Of a DNA stretch of 64,000 nucleotides, positions 7,612 through 62,639 are shown one piece after another. This stretch comes from Thainema sp. (GTDB lineage Bacteria; Cyanobacteriota; Cyanobacteriia; Phormidesmidales; Phormidesmidaceae), in contig JBQLZK010000001.1 in NCBI GenBank assembly GCA_052168235.1, positions 295,791 through 359,790 on the forward strand, read 5' to 3'. The notes below the pieces were generated by a model. The model had not been told where the DNA came from, ran no database searches, and saw nothing but the letters and a program-made list of their open reading frames with translations. A program made the position numbers and the translations under genes. The first letter of the stretch is position 1. Each line of letters opens with the position of its first letter.

Positions 7612-7813
7612 AATGTCGATGCCAAATAGGGTGCAGTAACGATTTGGGAGCGCGGCAAGTGCTGCTTGCACCCTCCCAAATCGTCGCTTTGCAGGACTAA
7701 CGATGGTTATCGCTATCATACGGCGTTAGCCAAATTGCGATTTGATGGTTAACCGTGCTGATCTTCTAAAATTGGGACAAGATCGATCTATCTCTTACCA
7801 TCAGAAAATCTCA

Positions 7814-8377
7814 ATGGTACAGTCTCCATCTAAACCCATCACGCTAGAGGAATTTCTGAAGCTGCCAGAAACTAAACCCGCCAGCGAATATATTGATGGG
7901 CAAGTTATCCAGAAACCCATGCCACAGGGAAAGCATAGTACAATCCAAACTGAATTTTCAACTACCGTCAATGCCGTGCTTAAGCCTCAACAAATTGCAC
8001 GAGCATTTTCAGAGTTGCGGTGTACCTTTGGTGGTCGCTCAACGGTTCCAGATGTGTCGGTATTTACGTGGCAAAGAATTCCGCGTGATGAAAACGGTGA
8101 AATTGCCAACATCTTCCCGATTGCTCCTGATTGGACAATCGAAATTTTGTCACCGGATCAAAGCCAGACTAAAGTAACTAAAAATATTCTGCATTGCCTC
8201 AATCATGGAACTCAAATGGGTTGGTTAATTGACCCGGATGAGCAAACCGTTTTTGTGTATCGTCCCAAACAGCAACCCGAAGTTTTTGATCAGCCAGAAC
8301 AGAGGCTTTCTGTACCTTCTTTCGCTAGTGAATTAAATCTGAGTATAGGTGTAATATTCGGCTGGTTATTAGAGTGA
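7814..8377 (+). CDS. Uma2 family (DUF820) PD-(D/E)xK endonuclease-like protein
   Basis: TLEEFLKLPETKPASEYIDG, PQGKHS, VPDVSVF, APDWTIEILSPDQS, GWLIDP. Confidence 0.9.
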   Translation: MVQSPSKPITLEEFLKLPETKPASEYIDGQVIQKPMPQGKHSTIQTEFSTTVNAVLKPQQIARAFSELRCTFGGRSTVPDVSVFTWQRIPRDENGEIANIFPIAPDWTIEILSPDQSQTKVTKNILHCLNHGTQMGWLIDPDEQTVFVYRPKQQPEVFDQPEQRLSVPSFASELNLSIGVIFGWLLE

Positions 8378-11793: not shown

Positions 11794-12237
11794 TTAGCCG
11801 ACCCAGTTCACACCACCGTCAGATGGAATGGAAGGCAGCGGTTTGCTCACAGGCGCACGCCGCGCATCATGGGTCGAGGTAGGCTGAGTTGACTTTTGCT
11901 GCTGCTGTTTCTGCTGTCCTGAGCCGTTTCCGGTGGAGCGCTCATCGGCGGGCTTGGCCACTCCTTTCAGCTCATATCTGGGTTCTGGCTTCAGCGCTTC
12001 CCGTTCTGGGATCACAATCTTACGCATGAAGTACTCAATCGTTTTCTGCTTCACCCAGCCACGGGTGGCCAAAACTTCGCCGAACTTCATGCCAGTGGCT
12101 TGCTGATCATTTAGTGCCACATCAATTTGAGCCTGCGTTAGTAATCCAGCATCGACCAGGTAGCTGCCCAGTCGTTTACGACCCGTCATCGATGTTGAGA
12201 CGGTTTGGACTTGATATCGCTCGCTGCTGTCTCGCAT
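11794..12237 (-). CDS. Small protein with an MshEN-like putative c-di-GMP-binding motif
   Basis: RLGSYLVDAGLLTQAQIDVALNDQ followed by KFGEVLATRGWV. Confidence 0.7.
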   Translation of the reverse strand: MRDSSERYQVQTVSTSMTGRKRLGSYLVDAGLLTQAQIDVALNDQQATGMKFGEVLATRGWVKQKTIEYFMRKIVIPEREALKPEPRYELKGVAKPADERSTGNGSGQQKQQQQKSTQPTSTHDARRAPVSKPLPSIPSDGGVNWVG

Positions 12238-12584: not shown

Positions 12585-13994
12585 ATGGCTGCTGATTCAT
12601 CTGCTCAGACTCCCTGGTGGAGCGCTCCCAAACGCTATTTTCAGAAAGAAGTTTTACCCTTACTGGCTGATCTCCGACTTGCGATCGCACTTTTACTTGC
12701 GATCGCGGTGTTCAGCATCTCCGGCACGGTGATTGAACAAGGGCAATCCCTGGCGTTTTATCAAGCCAACTATCCCGAAGATCCCGCGCTGTTCGGCTTT
12801 CTCAGTTGGAAAGTTCTGCTGACAATTGGCCTCGACCATGTGTATCGCACCTGGTGGTTTCTGGCGCTGCTGATTCTGTTTGGCTCTAGCTTGACCGCCT
12901 GCACGTTTACGCGACAGTTTCCGGCTCTCAAAGCCGCCCGCCGCTGGAAGTTCTACGAGAAACCCCGCCAGTTCGAGAAACTCGCCCTCAGCACTGAGTT
13001 CAGTACCTCCTCGCCTGCCTCCCTCGATACTCTCGACCATTTACTGAAAGCTAAGCGGTATAAGGTATTTCAGGAGGGCAATACCCTCTACGCCCGCAAA
13101 GGCATCGCCGGACGCATTGGCCCAATCATCGTTCACGCCAGTATGCTGCTGATTTTGGCAGGCGCAATCTGGGGCGCGATGACCGGATTTTTTGCTCAGG
13201 AGATGGTACCCAGTGGCGAAACGTTTCAGGTGAAGCACATCTTTGATGCCGGCCCGTGGGCCGAGCGGCAGGTGCCCACCGATTGGAGCGTGAAGGTGAA
13301 TCGCTTCTGGATTGACTACACGCCAGAGGGCGACATCGACCAGTTTTATTCGGATCTGTCGGTGATTGATCAGGACGGGAATGAGCGCGATCGCAAAACG
13401 ATCCACGTCAATCAGCCGCTCACCTATGATCATGTGACGTTCTATCAGGCCGATTGGGGCATTTCCGGCGTTCAGGTCAAGCTCAACAACAGTCCCATTT
13501 TCCAGCTACCAATGGGTCAGCTAGAAGTGGGCGGAGCGGGTCGCCTCTGGGGAACCTGGGTGCCGACCAGCACGGACTTGTCCTCTGGTGTGTCGCTGGT
13601 GGCGAAGGATTTGCAGGGAATGCTGCTGGTCTATGACCAAACGGGCAAGCTGATTTCGACGGTACGCGAGGGAATGTCTACGGAAGTAAATGGCATCACG
13701 CTGTCGGTCGTCAAGATTATTGGCAGTACGGGGCTGCAAATCAAAGCCGATCCGGGGATTCCGATTGTCTATGCGGGCTTTGGGCTGCTGATGATTGGGG
13801 TGGTGATGAGCTATGTGTCGCACTCGCAGGTGTGGGCACTGCGGCAGGATGATCGGCTCTATGTCGGTGGCCGCACGAATCGCGCCCAGGTGACATTTGA
13901 GCGTGAGCTAATCGGTATTTTTGATCAGCTTAGTGAAACCGAATTGGATACTGAAGCGAGTTCTTCGACTCCAAAGCCAACGTTAGTTACCTAA
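12585..13994 (+). CDS. ccs1: Cytochrome c biogenesis protein Ccs1/ResB
   Basis: [67 protein letters not shown]. Confidence 0.93.
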
Positions 13995-14043
13995 CAATTT
14001 TAGTGGTTTGCTTGTTGCAATTTTGTTCTGGAGAATTTGTGAT

Positions 14044-14148
14044 CTCTAACGTCCAGGATGAGATGCAGGCGAAAGCGATGCGGCCTTTCCCCTTCCTCTT
14101 GCAAAAGGCGTGTCGCTTTTGACTGTCAGTTCCATCCATTGGTTAGGC
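14044..14148 (-). mobile_element. attC-like integron cassette recombination site (105 bp)
   Basis: Minus strand reads GCCTAAC-CAATGGATGGAACTGAC...GCATCTCATCCTGGAC-GTTAGAG: RYYYAAC start, GTTAGAG end, paired inner L-box-like arms, palindromic core. Confidence 0.75.
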
Positions 14149-14255
14149 GGCAACGCGCATACCTCGGCGCGCTGATGTTCGATCATGTATCAGCCACCTC
14201 TCGCTTTGCTAATGATTCCCACAAACGTCCGAAGAACCTCGCAAGGCTCGTCTTA

Positions 14256-14495
14256 TCAGCTAGCCGCTGTGCCACTACCGCCGAGCGAGCTAGAAGCCCC
14301 AAGGATAAAACCGAAGTCATACAACAGTCCGTTGTTGTTCGTCTCGTAGATGCGGACACCATCCACAAAGAGACTTACGAAAAATACAATCGGACTGATC
14401 AGGCCGTGCCAAAGGCCAGCCAAGAACCCAGCGGGTCTTCCACCAGGAAGAGAGTATTTTGAATTGGGACCTGCTACGGCTAGAACGTTTGCCAT
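14256..14495 (-). CDS. Small membrane protein, gene cassette 2
   Basis: 79 aa with RBS GGAGGA; PAGFLAGLWHGLISP..IYETNNNG..YDFGFILG; lies between two attC-like sites. Confidence 0.75.
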   Translation of the reverse strand: MANVLAVAGPNSKYSLPGGRPAGFLAGLWHGLISPIVFFVSLFVDGVRIYETNNNGLLYDFGFILGASSSLGGSGTAAS

Positions 14496-14615
14496 CGATT
14501 CCTCCCAATAAGATTTGGTGCCTTGGCGTTCGAAAAACGTGACTCTTAAGGTTGACGGATACAGCTTAAAGGCGAACCCCGTTCGTCAGCAGTCTACATG
14601 TGCCCCACCATTGCC

Positions 14616-14713
14616 GCCTAACACCACAAACTCGGCGACCCAGCGCACGGAACCCAGCGAAGCGATTACAGCCGCGAAGCTTCCGCCAGATTTGCAGCAG
14701 CACATTGTTAGGC
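14616..14713 (-). mobile_element. attC-like integron cassette recombination site (98 bp)
   Basis: Minus strand reads GCCTAAC-AATGTGCTGCTGC...GTCGCCGAGTTTGTGGT-GTTAGGC, with perfectly complementary R boxes, 13 bp after the upstream gene's stop. Confidence 0.75.
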
Positions 14714-14726
14714 TAACGTCTTATCA

Positions 14727-14993
14727 TTATCTTTGTAGTCGGTCAATGACTCTCAAGAATCTTAAATTCCACCCAAAATCGAAAACCAGCATCCACTGCA
14801 TAGCAGCGCAAAATGCCAATGTTCCATCTGTAGGCTGGCCACTACTTAAGCGGGACACGATGAGCACAATAGAAGCTATGCACGCACACCAAAACACAAT
14901 CGTCTGGCGACGGGCCAAGTCATTAATGGCGGCGGCTCGCCGTGTAGTGTCTGTTGCCACCTCTGCGAACTTCTTATCGTATTTGGTGAACAT
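14727..14993 (-). CDS. Small two-TM hypothetical protein, gene cassette 1
   Basis: 88 aa with two hydrophobic segments; ATG about 23 nt after a GTTAGGC core site; followed by attC. Confidence 0.65.
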   Translation of the reverse strand: MFTKYDKKFAEVATDTTRRAAAINDLARRQTIVFWCACIASIVLIVSRLSSGQPTDGTLAFCAAMQWMLVFDFGWNLRFLRVIDRLQR

Positions 14994-15016
14994 AATGAAG
15001 TATGTGTAGTGAAGTG

Positions 15017-15045
15017 GCCTAACGATGAAGTTGAGCTGCGGGGAA
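15017..15045 (-). mobile_element. Right half of a degenerate attC-like site
   Basis: Minus strand CCCCGCAGCTCAACTTCATC-GTTAGGC just before the cassette 1 gene; no clean left half found. Confidence 0.55.
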
Positions 15046-15184
15046 AATCGCTTAGGCTAATGGATTCAGTATAAACATCTTGAATTTGCAATTTAGGCTG
15101 TTTGAACTGCATGTATTATTTGGCAACACATCTTTATCTTAATTTCCTGATCCTGGTAGAGATGGTGTGGTTTCACTGTGAATG

Positions 15185-15345
15185 GGAGGAAAAGTGCGAT
15201 CGCATGTGAACAAGATTGAGGAAAAAGTGCGATTGTTCTGCGAAGCAAATGGGATTGCGGGGAAAGTGCGATCGCACTGTAAAAGTAATGGTGTTAGTTC
15301 TGCGATCGCACTGTAAACAGGATCGTGAAAAGAGTGCGATCGCTA
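15185..15345. repeat. Cluster of extended-HIP1 repeats (AAAGTGCGATCGCA type)
   Basis: Four perfect HIP1 sites (15196, 15268, 15302, 15336) plus a degenerate one within 160 bp, with shared flanks. Confidence 0.75.
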
Positions 15346-15373: not shown

Positions 15374-15766
15374 CTAAGGAATATAAATCCGATCTACACC
15401 CATGTAATTCTCAATATCAAATAAAATCTCGACTAATCAGCTCGCGCATCGTTCCCGATAAATCTGCTCATCGAGCCGCTCTTTATTGCCAATCGTTACA
15501 ACAGGCAGCGATTGTAGATTATTTTCTTCCCGGATTACTTGTTCTAGTGAATCATCTCCCTTCATATTACGATTTGCCGTCAGAATGATCATCTGATTGC
15601 TTTGAACCACCTGCCACACCAAGCGATCAGGACTATTTTCAAGTAAGCTGACTTCTTCAAATCCAACGAAGCGAATTGGCATCAGTTCAAGCCATCCTTC
15701 AGCCGCGATCGTCCCCCACAATAAAGCTGCTTGTCCTCTCAAGTTGTAATCAACCAGGAAATTCAT
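15374..15766 (-). pseudogene. DUF5615 PIN-like toxin with a premature TGA at 15437-15439
   Basis: MNFLVDYNL..SPDRLVW..ILTANR..RERCAS*LVEILFDIENYMGVDRIYIP*; family-like C-terminus continues in frame after the stop. Confidence 0.75.
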
Positions 15767-16137
15767 ACCTTGGATTCAAGCCGATCTTTCCAAGCTTGAA
15801 GTTTTGCACGGATAGCCTCATGTTCTAGGTTTGGAGGCATTGCAGCAAGACGGGCAAAATGTTCTCGATTACGTGCTTCCCAGAATTGTCGGTTCTCTTC
15901 TGCAATTTGTAAAACCTGTTGATATTCGGCTTCGGCTTCAGCCTGATGAGCCTCAATGTAACAGAGAGCAGCATCGACTTGAGCATCTGTGAGACAGAGC
16001 TTTTCACGAATGAGTTTCGCAGGATAGCCAGCCGTGAAATAATCCATCACATCATACAGAGTAATGCGGGTGCCTGCGATGGTTAGTCCTCGCTCTGTCC
16101 GTACAATATTGGCTTGTTCATTCGGTGCTGAAGCCAT
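15763..16137 (-). CDS. DUF433 family antitoxin
   Basis: IVRTERGLTIAGTRITLYDVMDY..LTDAQVDAALCYI; ATGA overlap with the PIN-like gene. Confidence 0.85.
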   Translation of the reverse strand: MASAPNEQANIVRTERGLTIAGTRITLYDVMDYFTAGYPAKLIREKLCLTDAQVDAALCYIEAHQAEAEAEYQQVLQIAEENRQFWEARNREHFARLAAMPPNLEHEAIRAKLQAWKDRLESKV

Positions 16138-16313
16138 AGCCCAATTTTTGTAAAAGCTGCTTTCAGCATATCGCGTTGTAAATGGGATGTGAGAGAAGTG
16201 CGATCGCATTCATGACCTCAATCACTGGACACCATAACGCTTTGCAAATCGCCATTGCTTCAGTGCCGAAAGCCTTGCTCTGTAATAAATCGGGTCAATT
16301 GCGCCAGTTTTGG

Positions 16314-25680: not shown

Positions 25681-25798
25681 TTGACACTAATGCAATTGTG
25701 CTTAATCGCAAATCTCGCAGCTTGGGTTGAGTAGCGAACATAAGCTAACCTGGCAATTAAATCAGCATCTTGACCTTGCGATTTGAACTCGTTTAAAC

Positions 25799-25835
25799 GC
25801 AATGGAGGGACGAGATATTCTCGTCCCTCCATTGC
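25799..25835. terminator. Hairpin between convergent genes, probable ccsA terminator
   Basis: GCAATGGAGGGACGAGA-tat-TCTCGTCCCTCCATTGC. Confidence 0.65.
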
Positions 25836-25859
25836 TAGAAATGTGCAATCTCTGAATGG

Positions 25860-26864
25860 TTAAAAGAACCAGCCGTAGCTATGCAGCCCTTTGCCGAGCA
25901 GATTTACACCTAAATAGCAAACCCAGACCACAACAAATCCCGATGCCGCGAGAATTGCAGGCTTGCGACCTTGCCAACCTTTTGTAATCCGTGCATGGAG
26001 ATAAGCCGCAAAGACCAGCCAGGTGATCAGCGCCCAGGTTTCCTTCGGATCCCAGCTCCAGTAGGAACCCCAAGCTTCATTTGCCCAGACCGCTCCAGCG
26101 ATAATTCCAATCGTTAACAGCGGAAAGCCTAAGCCAATGATGCGATAGCTGATGTTATCCAACGTATCCGCTAAGCTGAGGCGCTGCGGTGACAAAGGTT
26201 CAGCAGACGTAACGGTGTTTGTCCGCTCGATCACAGCCGTACCGCCGCCATCGGCAAACGTCAACGGCTCAGCAACAGGTTCACCCTGACGCTTGAGCTG
26301 ATAGCGCTGGCTAGTGGAACGGAAGGAACCTGTACCGACGGAGCTGCCCTTGAGTTCAATATCCTGACCACGAGTGACGACGAGAAATGCGATCGCCAGT
26401 AGCGAGCCCACCATCAGCGCCGCATAGCTAAGCAGCATGACACTAACGTGCATCATCAGCCAGTTAGACTTGAGCGCAGGTACCAGCGGTTCCGAGTGCT
26501 GCATGGCATCGGGTAGCGACAGTGCCGCAAAAGCCGTAATTGCCATCGTTACAGGAGCGGTTACGGCTCCGACCAGGCGACTTTGGCTCATCTGCTCCGC
26601 TAGCAAGTGCATGGCCGTAATGCCCCAGGCCACGAAAAACAGCGATTCATACAGATTACTCAGCGGAAAATAACCCGCCTCAATCCAACGGGCCGCCAAT
26701 AGTGCGGCGATGCACAAATTTGCGATCGCCATGCCAGCGGTGCCCATTTGCGCCAATGCTGGAATGCGCGGAAAGGCCACTCCAGCCCAGTACATCAACA
26801 TGGTGATAAACAGCACAGCAAACGATGCGTTATCGAGCCAGCCCTGTAGCGTAACTAAATCCAT
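25860..26864 (-). CDS. ccsA: Cytochrome c biogenesis protein CcsA (ResC-type)
   Basis: [45 protein letters not shown] (WWD motif), GLHSYG. Confidence 0.96.
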
Positions 26865-43848: not shown

Positions 43849-43920
43849 CTGGGGTGCTAGGATTCGAACCTAGGAATGGCGGGACCAAAACCCGCTGCCT
43901 TACCACTTGGCGACACCCCA
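43849..43920 (-). tRNA. trnQ: tRNA-Gln(TTG)
   Basis: Minus strand TGGGGTGTCGCCAAGTGGTAAGGCAGCGGGTTTTGGTCCCGCCATTCCTAGGTTCGAATCCTAGCACCCCAG folds as a cloverleaf; anticodon TTG; CCA not encoded. Confidence 0.96.
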
Positions 43921-45691: not shown

Positions 45692-45923
45692 TCAAATTTG
45701 CAGCCCAAACTGCTGTGAACCGAACAACTGCAAATTTGATGTTTATTCAATTTCCATCTAGCGTTATCAACACAAACCGATGCAAATTTCGAATCATCCG
45801 GATGTGTGCTGACCACGGCACTCACGTCACCATTTATATTGGCGACGAATTGTGGGGATCGCGGGATTAATTATGTTTTCTTTGGTTTGTGCTCGGCTAT
45901 GTTAGGGAATCAGGATAACAAAC

Positions 45924-46053
45924 GAATCGACCCGTGCTGCATGAGCATAGAACAAGCAGCACGGGTCGATTCGGGGTGATAGTAGTTTGATTTGGATCTG
46001 GAGAAAGAGCTGGATCTGGAGCTGCGATCGCAGCTCCAGATCCAAATCAAACT
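45924..46053. repeat. Two adjacent palindromes downstream of ychF
   Basis: GAATCGACCCGTGCTGC..GCAGCACGGGTCGATTC, and a 34-bp perfect palindrome at 46011-46044 centred on HIP1. Confidence 0.7.
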
Positions 46054-53658: not shown

Positions 53659-53715
53659 ACCGTTCATTTCTCAAGCTGAGAAACGGAAGTAGGGAATTTC
53701 CCGAAGGAACGCGCC
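53659..53715 (+). ncRNA. Glutamine riboswitch (glnA RNA motif, type I)
   Basis: CGTTCA, stem TTTCTCA/TGAGAAA, CGGAAGTA, stem GGGAA/TTCCC, GAAGGAACGCGCC; matches the glnA motif architecture and lies upstream of a DUF4278 gene. Confidence 0.9.
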
Positions 53716-62046: not shown

Positions 62047-62301
62047 ATGGCAATCGTCATTACCCTTAGCCCTGAATTAGAGGCGCTGTTGCTTGATAAA
62101 GCTGCTCAGCGAGGAGAAGACGTTAATTCTGTTGCTTCTGAGTTATTAGCGAGTGCTTTAGAGTGGGAAACTCAGGACTCAGCAGAGGCTGTTAAAGGCA
62201 TTCAGCAGGGGCTGGATGCCTTTGAAGCTGGTCGATTTCGTTCGTTTGACGAATTTGCACAAGAACAGCGTCATAAGTACGATTTGCCAGCAGACACATG
62301 A
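62047..62301 (+). CDS. Putative antitoxin (ParD/CopG-like)
   Basis: ITLSPELEALL..AAQRG..GIQQGLDAFEAGRFRSFDEF; ATGA overlap with the toxin. Confidence 0.8.
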   Translation: MAIVITLSPELEALLLDKAAQRGEDVNSVASELLASALEWETQDSAEAVKGIQQGLDAFEAGRFRSFDEFAQEQRHKYDLPADT

Positions 62302-62639
62302 AATATCGGATTGAGATTTCGAGCGTAGCAGAAGCTGAGGCAGATCGAGCTTTCCTGCGATTGTCCCAAATCGCATCTCCAGCAACGGCTAAGCATTGGT
62401 ACGCGGGCTTGATACAGGCTATTGAATCGTTGTCTCAGATGCCTAAACGCTGTCCACTAGCGAGAGAAAATTCGTATTTCAGCCAAGAGATCCGTCAGCT
62501 AGTTTATGGCAAAGGACGGAGTTCATACCGTGTTCTTTTCACGATTCTTGAAGAACAGGAAAGAGCAACGGTTCGTATTTTGCATATTCGTCATGGTTCT
62601 CAGCAGGCGCTTGGCGAAAGTTTGGATGAGGACGAATGA
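62298..62639 (+). CDS. RelE/ParE family toxin
   Basis: MKYRIEISSVAEAE..W..AIESLSQMPKRCPLARE..IRQL.YG..YRVLFTI..VRILHIRH. Confidence 0.88.
   Translation: MKYRIEISSVAEAEADRAFLRLSQIASPATAKHWYAGLIQAIESLSQMPKRCPLARENSYFSQEIRQLVYGKGRSSYRVLFTILEEQERATVRILHIRHGSQQALGESLDEDE

Follow-up and report, generated by a model that had tools for sequence, protein, structure and literature searches.

At positions 14044-15057 of a 64-kb stretch of Thainema sp. DNA, beside the gene ccs1, lie what are probably the partly eroded remains of two integron cassettes, a small group that resembles a cluster of attC sites lacking an integron-integrase (CALIN). We put the probability of this reading at about 0.65. Throughout, "the window" means the whole stretch of 64,000 nucleotides (nt), and coordinates are window positions. 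The cluster holds two small minus-strand genes, ORF1 and ORF2, each followed by a candidate attC site, site 1 (14616-14713) and site 2 (14044-14148) respectively.

The sequence-only reading of this DNA had placed two minus-strand open reading frames (ORFs) here, each preceded by a GTTAGGC core, and both were recovered: ORF1 (14727-14993, 88 residues) behind a core at 15023-15017, and ORF2 (14256-14495, 79 residues) behind one at 14622-14616. Read along the minus strand, the cluster opens with GCCTAAG (15057-15051) and the GTTAGGC preceding ORF1, and GCCTAAC follows that gene at 14713-14707. Then come the GTTAGGC preceding ORF2, ORF2 itself, GCCTAAC at 14148-14142 and GTTAGAG at 14050-14044, where site 2 ends 49 nt from the stop of the convergent ccs1/ResB gene (12585-13994, plus strand; Pfam ResB, E 1.9e-84). 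ORF1 is closely framed, with its core 23 nt before the ATG and the R'' box starting 13 nt after the stop. On the two strands of the 64 kb together there are five copies of the exact heptamer GCCTAAC/GTTAGGC, where chance would give a mean of 5.18. Of these, four fall within 882 bp (14142-15023), with their strands strictly alternating so as to frame both small genes, and when five positions were drawn at random this clustering was reproduced in 106 of 2,000,000 simulated trials. A perfect inverted repeat of 12 nt (14611-14622 and 14142-14153) flanks ORF2 and extends both cores; this complementarity joins the 5' end of the putative cassette 2 to the sequence around that cassette's own R''.

The attC sites of integrons follow the consensus RYYYAAC / GTTRRRY, with conserved AAC/GTT triplets and with R and L boxes, and measure 57-141 bp (Nivina et al. 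2016, PMC5027507). The bottom strand forms an imperfect hairpin, stabilised by extra G:T pairs and interrupted by an unpaired spacer of 5-6 nt. Bases on the '' arm are left outside the helix, typically G16 together with a conserved T23/24, and a 6-bp stem separates the two; the integrase is described as recognising the site through its conserved folded structure (PMC5027507).

Site 2 has most of these features. It is 105 nt long, inside the known range, and lies on the minus strand, so that its bottom strand is the plus strand of the window. Its R'' box, GCCTAAC, fits RYYYAAC exactly, its R' box, GTTAGAG, fits the consensus at six of seven positions, and the two boxes pair over 5-6 bp. Folding gives the bottom strand -21.4 kcal/mol (z -3.54), which none of 200 shuffles equalled, and the top strand -16.7 kcal/mol (z -1.83); the bottom strand has four G:T pairs and the top strand one. 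In the optimal fold the central spacer, which measures 5 nt on one arm (') and 4 nt on the other (''), is unpaired, and a long stem ends in a 15-nt loop. Counted from the 3' end of the bottom strand, T23 is unpaired with a probability of 0.95 and G20 with a probability of 0.98. Position 16 is a C that is paired in the optimum, with an unpaired A (probability 0.74) on the opposite arm. A register in which C16 and T23 both bulge lies 1.7 kcal/mol above the optimum and pairs five of the six stem positions. The same analysis returned G16/T23 for attC_aadA1 and C16/T23 for three environmental sites (two from locus L007 and one from L051, described below), so a C at position 16 does occur in genuine environmental sites.

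We scored the sites with a covariance model, R1, a stand-in for the IntegronFinder attC model that was built from 15 environmental attC sites beside relatives of ORF2 and that describes an R box, spacer, L box, bulge and next helix. Searches of the window covered both strands with filters off. Site 2 was the best match in the window, aligned at full length on the predicted minus strand with 20.9 bits (a rough E of 0.0026, or 0.00024 when the search was confined to the 6 kb around the cluster). As a positive control, attC_aadA1 (class 1 integron, plasmid R100), which lay outside the training set, came top of 50 kb on the correct strand with 26.3 bits, the next match reaching 12.0. Six ORF2 loci without arrays (54 kb), the negative control, peaked at 12.4 bits, and background maxima elsewhere were 12.0-15.8 bits; the upper figure belongs to a second, unrelated match in the window that lacks AAC/GTT. 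Over the 80 loci described below, 46 of the 56 matches listed scored at least 27 bits, all 46 on the ORF2-sense strand. By its modelled fold and score, site 2 is a convincing attC, whether intact or slightly worn, and it lies in the orientation first proposed.

Site 1 behaves differently. The sequence-only reading had described both sites as imperfect palindromes of about 100 bp; this was right for 14044-14148 and not for 14616-14713, where only the 8-bp ends pair. These ends, the R boxes GCCTAACA and TGTTAGGC, form a perfect 8-bp pair around an 82-nt interior. No L box could be placed there in either orientation, with which the R1 alignment agrees, and the fold has no extrahelical bulge at positions 16 or 23. 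The earlier statement that the two sites are dissimilar was confirmed, as their interiors have nothing in common beyond the cores. That reading had also named a third half site at 15017-15045. The core is indeed present, but the element is a 41-nt mini inverted repeat (15017-15057, minus strand), GCCTAAG...GTTAGGC, whose last 7 nt are the core opening cassette 1. It folds at -5.4 to -5.8 kcal/mol (z -1.6 to -1.95), scores 9.1 bits in R1 (E 3.8) and falls below the 57-141 bp attC range (PMC5027507); this palindrome may be a collapsed site. When R1 was searched against the 6 kb around the cluster, E was 0.066 for site 1 and 0.36 for the 41-nt repeat, values that come from the core sequence alone.

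Two smaller features lie near site 1. Just past ORF1, at 14708-14718 on the minus strand, GTTAG abuts CCTAAC, so that a core-like GTTAG touches the site 1 R''. A 10-mer followed by AGCCT..C is common to both post-stop positions (14717-14726 and 14249-14258, minus strand), and the local score of this shared block was reached by 49 of 2000 shuffles. The copy at ORF2 may be a decayed R'', as this is where other ORF2 cassettes carry theirs. Homology of the two post-gene segments beyond this block was considered and dropped, the rest being at chance level (1084 of 2000 shuffles reached the score), as was an attC directly behind the ORF2 stop (14149-14250), where neither strand had structure (z +0.6 on both).

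The second line of evidence is the family to which ORF2 belongs. The product of this gene, with 470 relatives at E<=1e-3 among 471 candidates, can be read as a small membrane protein of a widespread 79-residue family. An alignment of 26 sequences has 26 invariant columns, and the AlphaFold2 model (mean predicted local distance difference test score, pLDDT, 72.3) has predicted helices at residues 24-43 and 57-71. We found 355 genome stretches from many phyla that encode a relative, and the locus counts given here cover the best 80 of these 355. An R1 match lay right behind the ORF2 relative in five of the 80 (L006, L007, L031, L051 and L058), so ORF2 is cassette-borne in a minority of loci. In L007, a Thermoanaerobaculia metagenome-assembled genome (MAG), the relative sits within an array of 76-nt GCCTAAC...GTTAGGC palindromes about 0.5 kb apart, and similar arrays occur in L051 (Gemmatimonadales), L006 and L031. 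Sites of at least 27 bits numbered 20 in L007, nine in L051, eight in L006 and six in L031. L031 and L058 are two copies in one Gammaproteobacteria MAG. Their alignment begins at GTTAGGC, 31 nt ahead of the ATG, ends at GTTAGA past the downstream palindrome and extends nowhere outside, the mark of a gene and attC that move as one unit in the usual orientation. In the ORF2 cassettes of L007 and L031 the cassette start complements the cassette's own R'' region over 11 nt, like the 12-nt repeat in the window.

Neither ccs1 nor ORF1 stood beside an ORF2 relative in any of the 80 loci, and DNA similarity between the window and these loci ended at the ORF2 coding region. Such a lack of conserved context speaks for the cassette reading. 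In the ORF2 tree the window copy falls in an unresolved group of mixed phyla that also holds cassette-borne copies. The two cyanobacterial loci stand apart from each other in this tree and the window copy joins neither; 43 of the 77 inner branches are open, the alignment having too few columns, and the donor is not nameable. One cyanobacterial MAG (L029, 5880-6300) has an ORF2 relative that is sister to the cassette-borne Acidobacteriota copies of L006 and L007, with 96% support in the Shimodaira-Hasegawa-like approximate likelihood ratio test (SH-aLRT). Their upstream boundary survives there in a worn form, a core-like mini repeat of 23 nt follows the stop, and R1 has no match. A collection of plasmids contained five weak ORF2 matches, in Vibrio and Pseudoalteromonas megaplasmids, and the two of these that were inspected had no integron context.

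Much less can be said for ORF1. It has three close relatives, with 47 columns invariant and identical first and last residues in all, and a full HMMER scan found 71 cluster representatives at E<=1e-3; these relatives are metagenome proteins. The plasmid collection had no match to ORF1. Judged by such sequence conservation, ORF1 and ORF2 are both real genes, and the ORF1 family is rare. Neither product matches Pfam, NCBIfam or a named protein-atlas cluster, which agrees with the earlier description of both as uncharacterised.

Put together, these results suggest a course of events. An IntI encoded elsewhere, or since lost, would have inserted both cassettes between ccs1 and the DUF433/DUF5615 gene pair on the other side. 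From the core sites, cassette 2 would span 14050-14621 on the minus strand, running from TTAGGC through ORF2 to the G of R'. It appears nearly intact, with a TTAGGC half-core, the 79-residue gene and a 105-nt attC whose bottom strand can fold. The site 2 hairpin would be the form that integron integrases recognise, with an R box, a 5 x 4 nt spacer, an L box and an extrahelical T23. Cassette 1, placed from core positions only, would run from TTAGGC through ORF1 to a degenerate attC (14622-15022, minus strand); both core heptamers sit tight around its 88-residue gene, and the interior of its site would have lost, or never had, an L box and hairpin. The genes would be expressed, if at all, by read-through, as no promoter stands out; a promoter and terminator scan gave counts not above those of shuffled sequence.

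How far this resembles known clusters depends on what is counted. A CALIN is defined as a cluster made up of two or more attC sites, separated by less than 4 kb and on one strand, without a nearby integron-integrase (Cury et al. 2016, PMC4889954). The window reaches two only if core-only sites are counted, and it has one convincing attC, so that under this definition the locus is at most a candidate for the class first assigned to it. The gene-plus-attC architecture proposed with it is supported for the ORF2 unit, in which core, gene and attC lie on one strand, and not for ORF1, as site 1 fails on structure. The checks then suggested divided in the same way: bottom-strand folding found an extrahelical T23 at site 2 and neither bulges nor a fold beyond shuffle level at site 1; R1, in place of the usual attC model, gave 20.9 bits and 11.8 bits respectively; and homologues in cassettes were found for ORF2 and, in the 83 loci fetched, not for ORF1. 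With only one site still attC-like, the locus would be an ordinary, partly eroded leftover of gene capture.

The earlier statement that no tyrosine recombinase is present was borne out. The 59 window ORFs scanned (11 + 48) include none with PF00589, and the best tblastn match of IntI1 from R100 to the window had an E of 0.5, giving no sign of an integrase remnant. The window extends 14 kb on one side of the cluster and 49 kb on the other.

A number of results weigh against the interpretation as two eroded cassettes. Insertion is a step that we infer, because neither an integrase nor a relative with an empty site was seen, and the decay of site 1 is likewise only presumed. Site 1 scores 11.8 bits in R1 (E 0.7), with only the R boxes aligned around an 82-nt local end, and folds no better than chance on either strand (plus, z -0.53, 57 of 200 shuffles as good; minus, z -1.10, 30 of 200). 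Site 2 has blemishes of its own: the last base of R' is G instead of the consensus pyrimidine, the '' arm carries a spacer of 4 nt, the usual length being 5-6, and the optimal fold has an unpaired A on the opposite arm and no G at position 16. Its 20.9 bits are about what the reverse strands of true attC sites reach, which is at most 21.9 (21.9 and 19.9), and R1 was itself drawn from three attC types and gives rough E-values. ORF2 is loosely packed in the window: from core to ATG it is 120 nt, and from stop to R'' 107 nt; the corresponding distances in L006, L007, L031 and L058 are about 31-48 nt and 4 nt. There was no R1 match right behind the gene in 75 of the 80 ORF2 loci, and within Acidobacteriota the family clusters as if vertically inherited. 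A profile of 66 relatives plus ORF1 found no ORF1 copy in the 83 loci fetched.

These weaknesses leave room for other explanations. The poor state of site 1 would be accounted for if ORF2 and site 2 were a lone cassette, ORF1 an ordinary host or island gene and the heptamers around ORF1 no cassette marks. Lone attC sites are common in genomes, with 431 reported by Cury et al. (PMC4889954), and ORF1 relatives were in none of the arrays examined. We nevertheless think this unlikely: ORF1 is framed with textbook tightness by the exact heptamer of ORF2, 23 nt before its ATG and 13 nt after its stop, the group of four heptamers is far beyond chance, and the post-stop 10-mer is common to both genes at a score that 49 of 2000 shuffles reach. 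An origin outside integrons is somewhat less probable still. The heptamers would then end small mobile or host palindromic elements bounded by inverted repeats, and site 2 would terminate the convergent ccs1 and ORF2. The perfect 12-nt repeat around ORF2, the place of site 2 between convergent genes 49 nt beyond the ccs1 stop, and the richness of cyanobacterial genomes in short repeats, with 92 copies of the HIP1 octamer in this window, would all fit. But neither site has a second copy in the 64 kb, and no T run follows the site 2 hairpin, which the terminator scan did not list. The strand asymmetry of site 2 and its T23 fit an attC rather than a plain terminator, and in other phyla ORF2 relatives lie between these same heptamers in arrays of as many as 20 attC sites.

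It is also very improbable that the cluster is a live CALIN, both of whose sites, the unstructured site 1 included, are still recombined by an integrase encoded elsewhere in the genome. The R boxes are intact at all sites and pair perfectly over 8 bp at site 1; about half of the CALINs described are in genomes that encode IntI, and Cyanobacteria are among the integron-bearing clades (PMC4889954). Site 1, however, has neither an L box nor extrahelical bases, the recognition of attC sites by integrases is described as resting on their conserved folded structure (PMC5027507), and the window holds no integrase or remnant of one, the best IntI1 match having an E of 0.5. Still more doubtful is the notion that site 1 and the 41-nt repeat are working minimal attC sites, with R boxes and no L box, of a divergent cyanobacterial integrase. 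Were it so, the cluster beside ccs1 would still be mobile, and this integrase would differ from IntI1 or VchIntIA in how it reads sites. That short motifs have simply fallen together around two unrelated small genes is hardly credible. The degenerate core GTTRRRY is indeed common, with 157 occurrences in the window, and the total number of exact heptamers equals expectation, but their clustering by itself has a probability of about 5e-5, with neither orientation nor placement around the genes yet taken into account, and the top covariance-model match of the window falls at exactly the predicted place and on the predicted strand.

Taken as the remnant of two cassettes, the locus can be set beside known systems. 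Like a CALIN it has gene-plus-attC units on one strand within 1 kb, no integrase in the window and genes of unnamed families. It is also small: of the 279 CALINs reported, half of them in genomes without IntI, 83% have fewer than six attC sites (PMC4889954). Unlike a CALIN, it has a single site that stands up to a structural test for attC; of the other one or two, only the core heptamers are kept. It shares with the sedentary chromosomal arrays of L007, L051, L006 and L031 the cores GCCTAAC...GTTAGGC, a cargo of the ORF2 family and the extended complementarity of the cassette start with its own R''. Those arrays have 6-20 near-identical attC sites about 0.4-0.7 kb apart and genes 4 nt from R'', whereas in the window there are two sites, unlike each other, ORF2 has long untranslated flanks and no array extends past 1 kb. 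Site 2 resembles attC_aadA1 (R100; 13475-13534 of locus L083) in its R box, unpaired spacer, L box and extrahelical T23, and R1 found both, with 20.9 bits against 26.3. The aadA1 site is 60 nt long with G16 and a 3-nt loop; site 2, at 105 nt, has a long stem and a 15-nt loop, a C at position 16 and an extra unpaired base on the opposite arm.

On this reading the locus is of a familiar kind, and integrons were already on record for its phylum: Cury et al. 2016 (PMC4889954) name Cyanobacteria as one of the clades that have them. It adds a further example of cassette remnants outside Proteobacteria and leaves the understanding of integrons unchanged, as both CALINs and integrons of cyanobacteria have been in the literature since 2016 (PMC4889954). 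The analysis also shows a very widespread family of 79-residue membrane proteins travelling across phyla in integron cassettes, which makes this family a reasonable target for functional work.

Two simpler search rules were also tried. A heuristic scan combining xxxxAAC...GTTxxxx with fold energy listed 182 candidates in the window, the strongest being plain hairpins, and was replaced by the covariance model because it was too unspecific; a three-site motif rule applied to the 80 loci was noisy and was not used for counts. The window has near-perfect strong hairpins at 541-672 (-40.9 kcal/mol), 25792-25865 (-21.1) and 45917-45991 (-25.7), which are terminator-like and none of which is an attC by R1. 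The sole IntI1 similarity in the 80 loci is a stretch of 48 residues (E 4e-5) at 7819-7962 of L024, a Latescibacterota MAG, about 1.6 kb downstream of the ORF2 relative.

The surroundings of the cluster are those of a cyanobacterial chromosome. DUF3352, DUF3370 and DUF3611 are typical of cyanobacteria, and the window, which is cyanobacterial in character, encodes all three together with ccs1 and a Cytochrom_C_asm-family gene. Upstream of the cluster, at 15437-16209 on the minus strand, are overlapping genes for a DUF433 protein (148 residues) and a DUF5615 protein (109 residues; a weak match, below the Pfam cut-off), a pair that looks like a toxin-antitoxin module. It was considered as a third cassette and rejected, as 16210-16313 contains no core and the best model match on that side does not exceed 7.1 bits. 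The gap that separates the DUF5615 gene from the 41-nt palindrome is filled, at 15180-15345, by four direct repeats of about 34-39 nt, each with a HIP1 octamer. The window has 92 such octamers against 1.5 expected, and the HIP1-free 1.8 kb at 13395-15195 covers the cluster. We do not take this gap as evidence of foreign origin, because gaps of similar length occur elsewhere in the window.

On the other side, adjoining ccs1, a minus-strand gene (11794-12237) encodes a small protein with an MshE-like domain that binds cyclic di-GMP. An Rfam scan of the whole window at gathering thresholds found nothing in the cluster; its only matches were a tRNA gene (43849-43920, minus strand) and a glutamine riboswitch (53659-53715, plus strand; 56.5 bits) upstream of a gene for a DUF4278 protein. 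Towards the two ends of the window, both on the plus strand, are genes for a Uma2-family endonuclease (7742-8377) and a ParE toxin (62298-62639).

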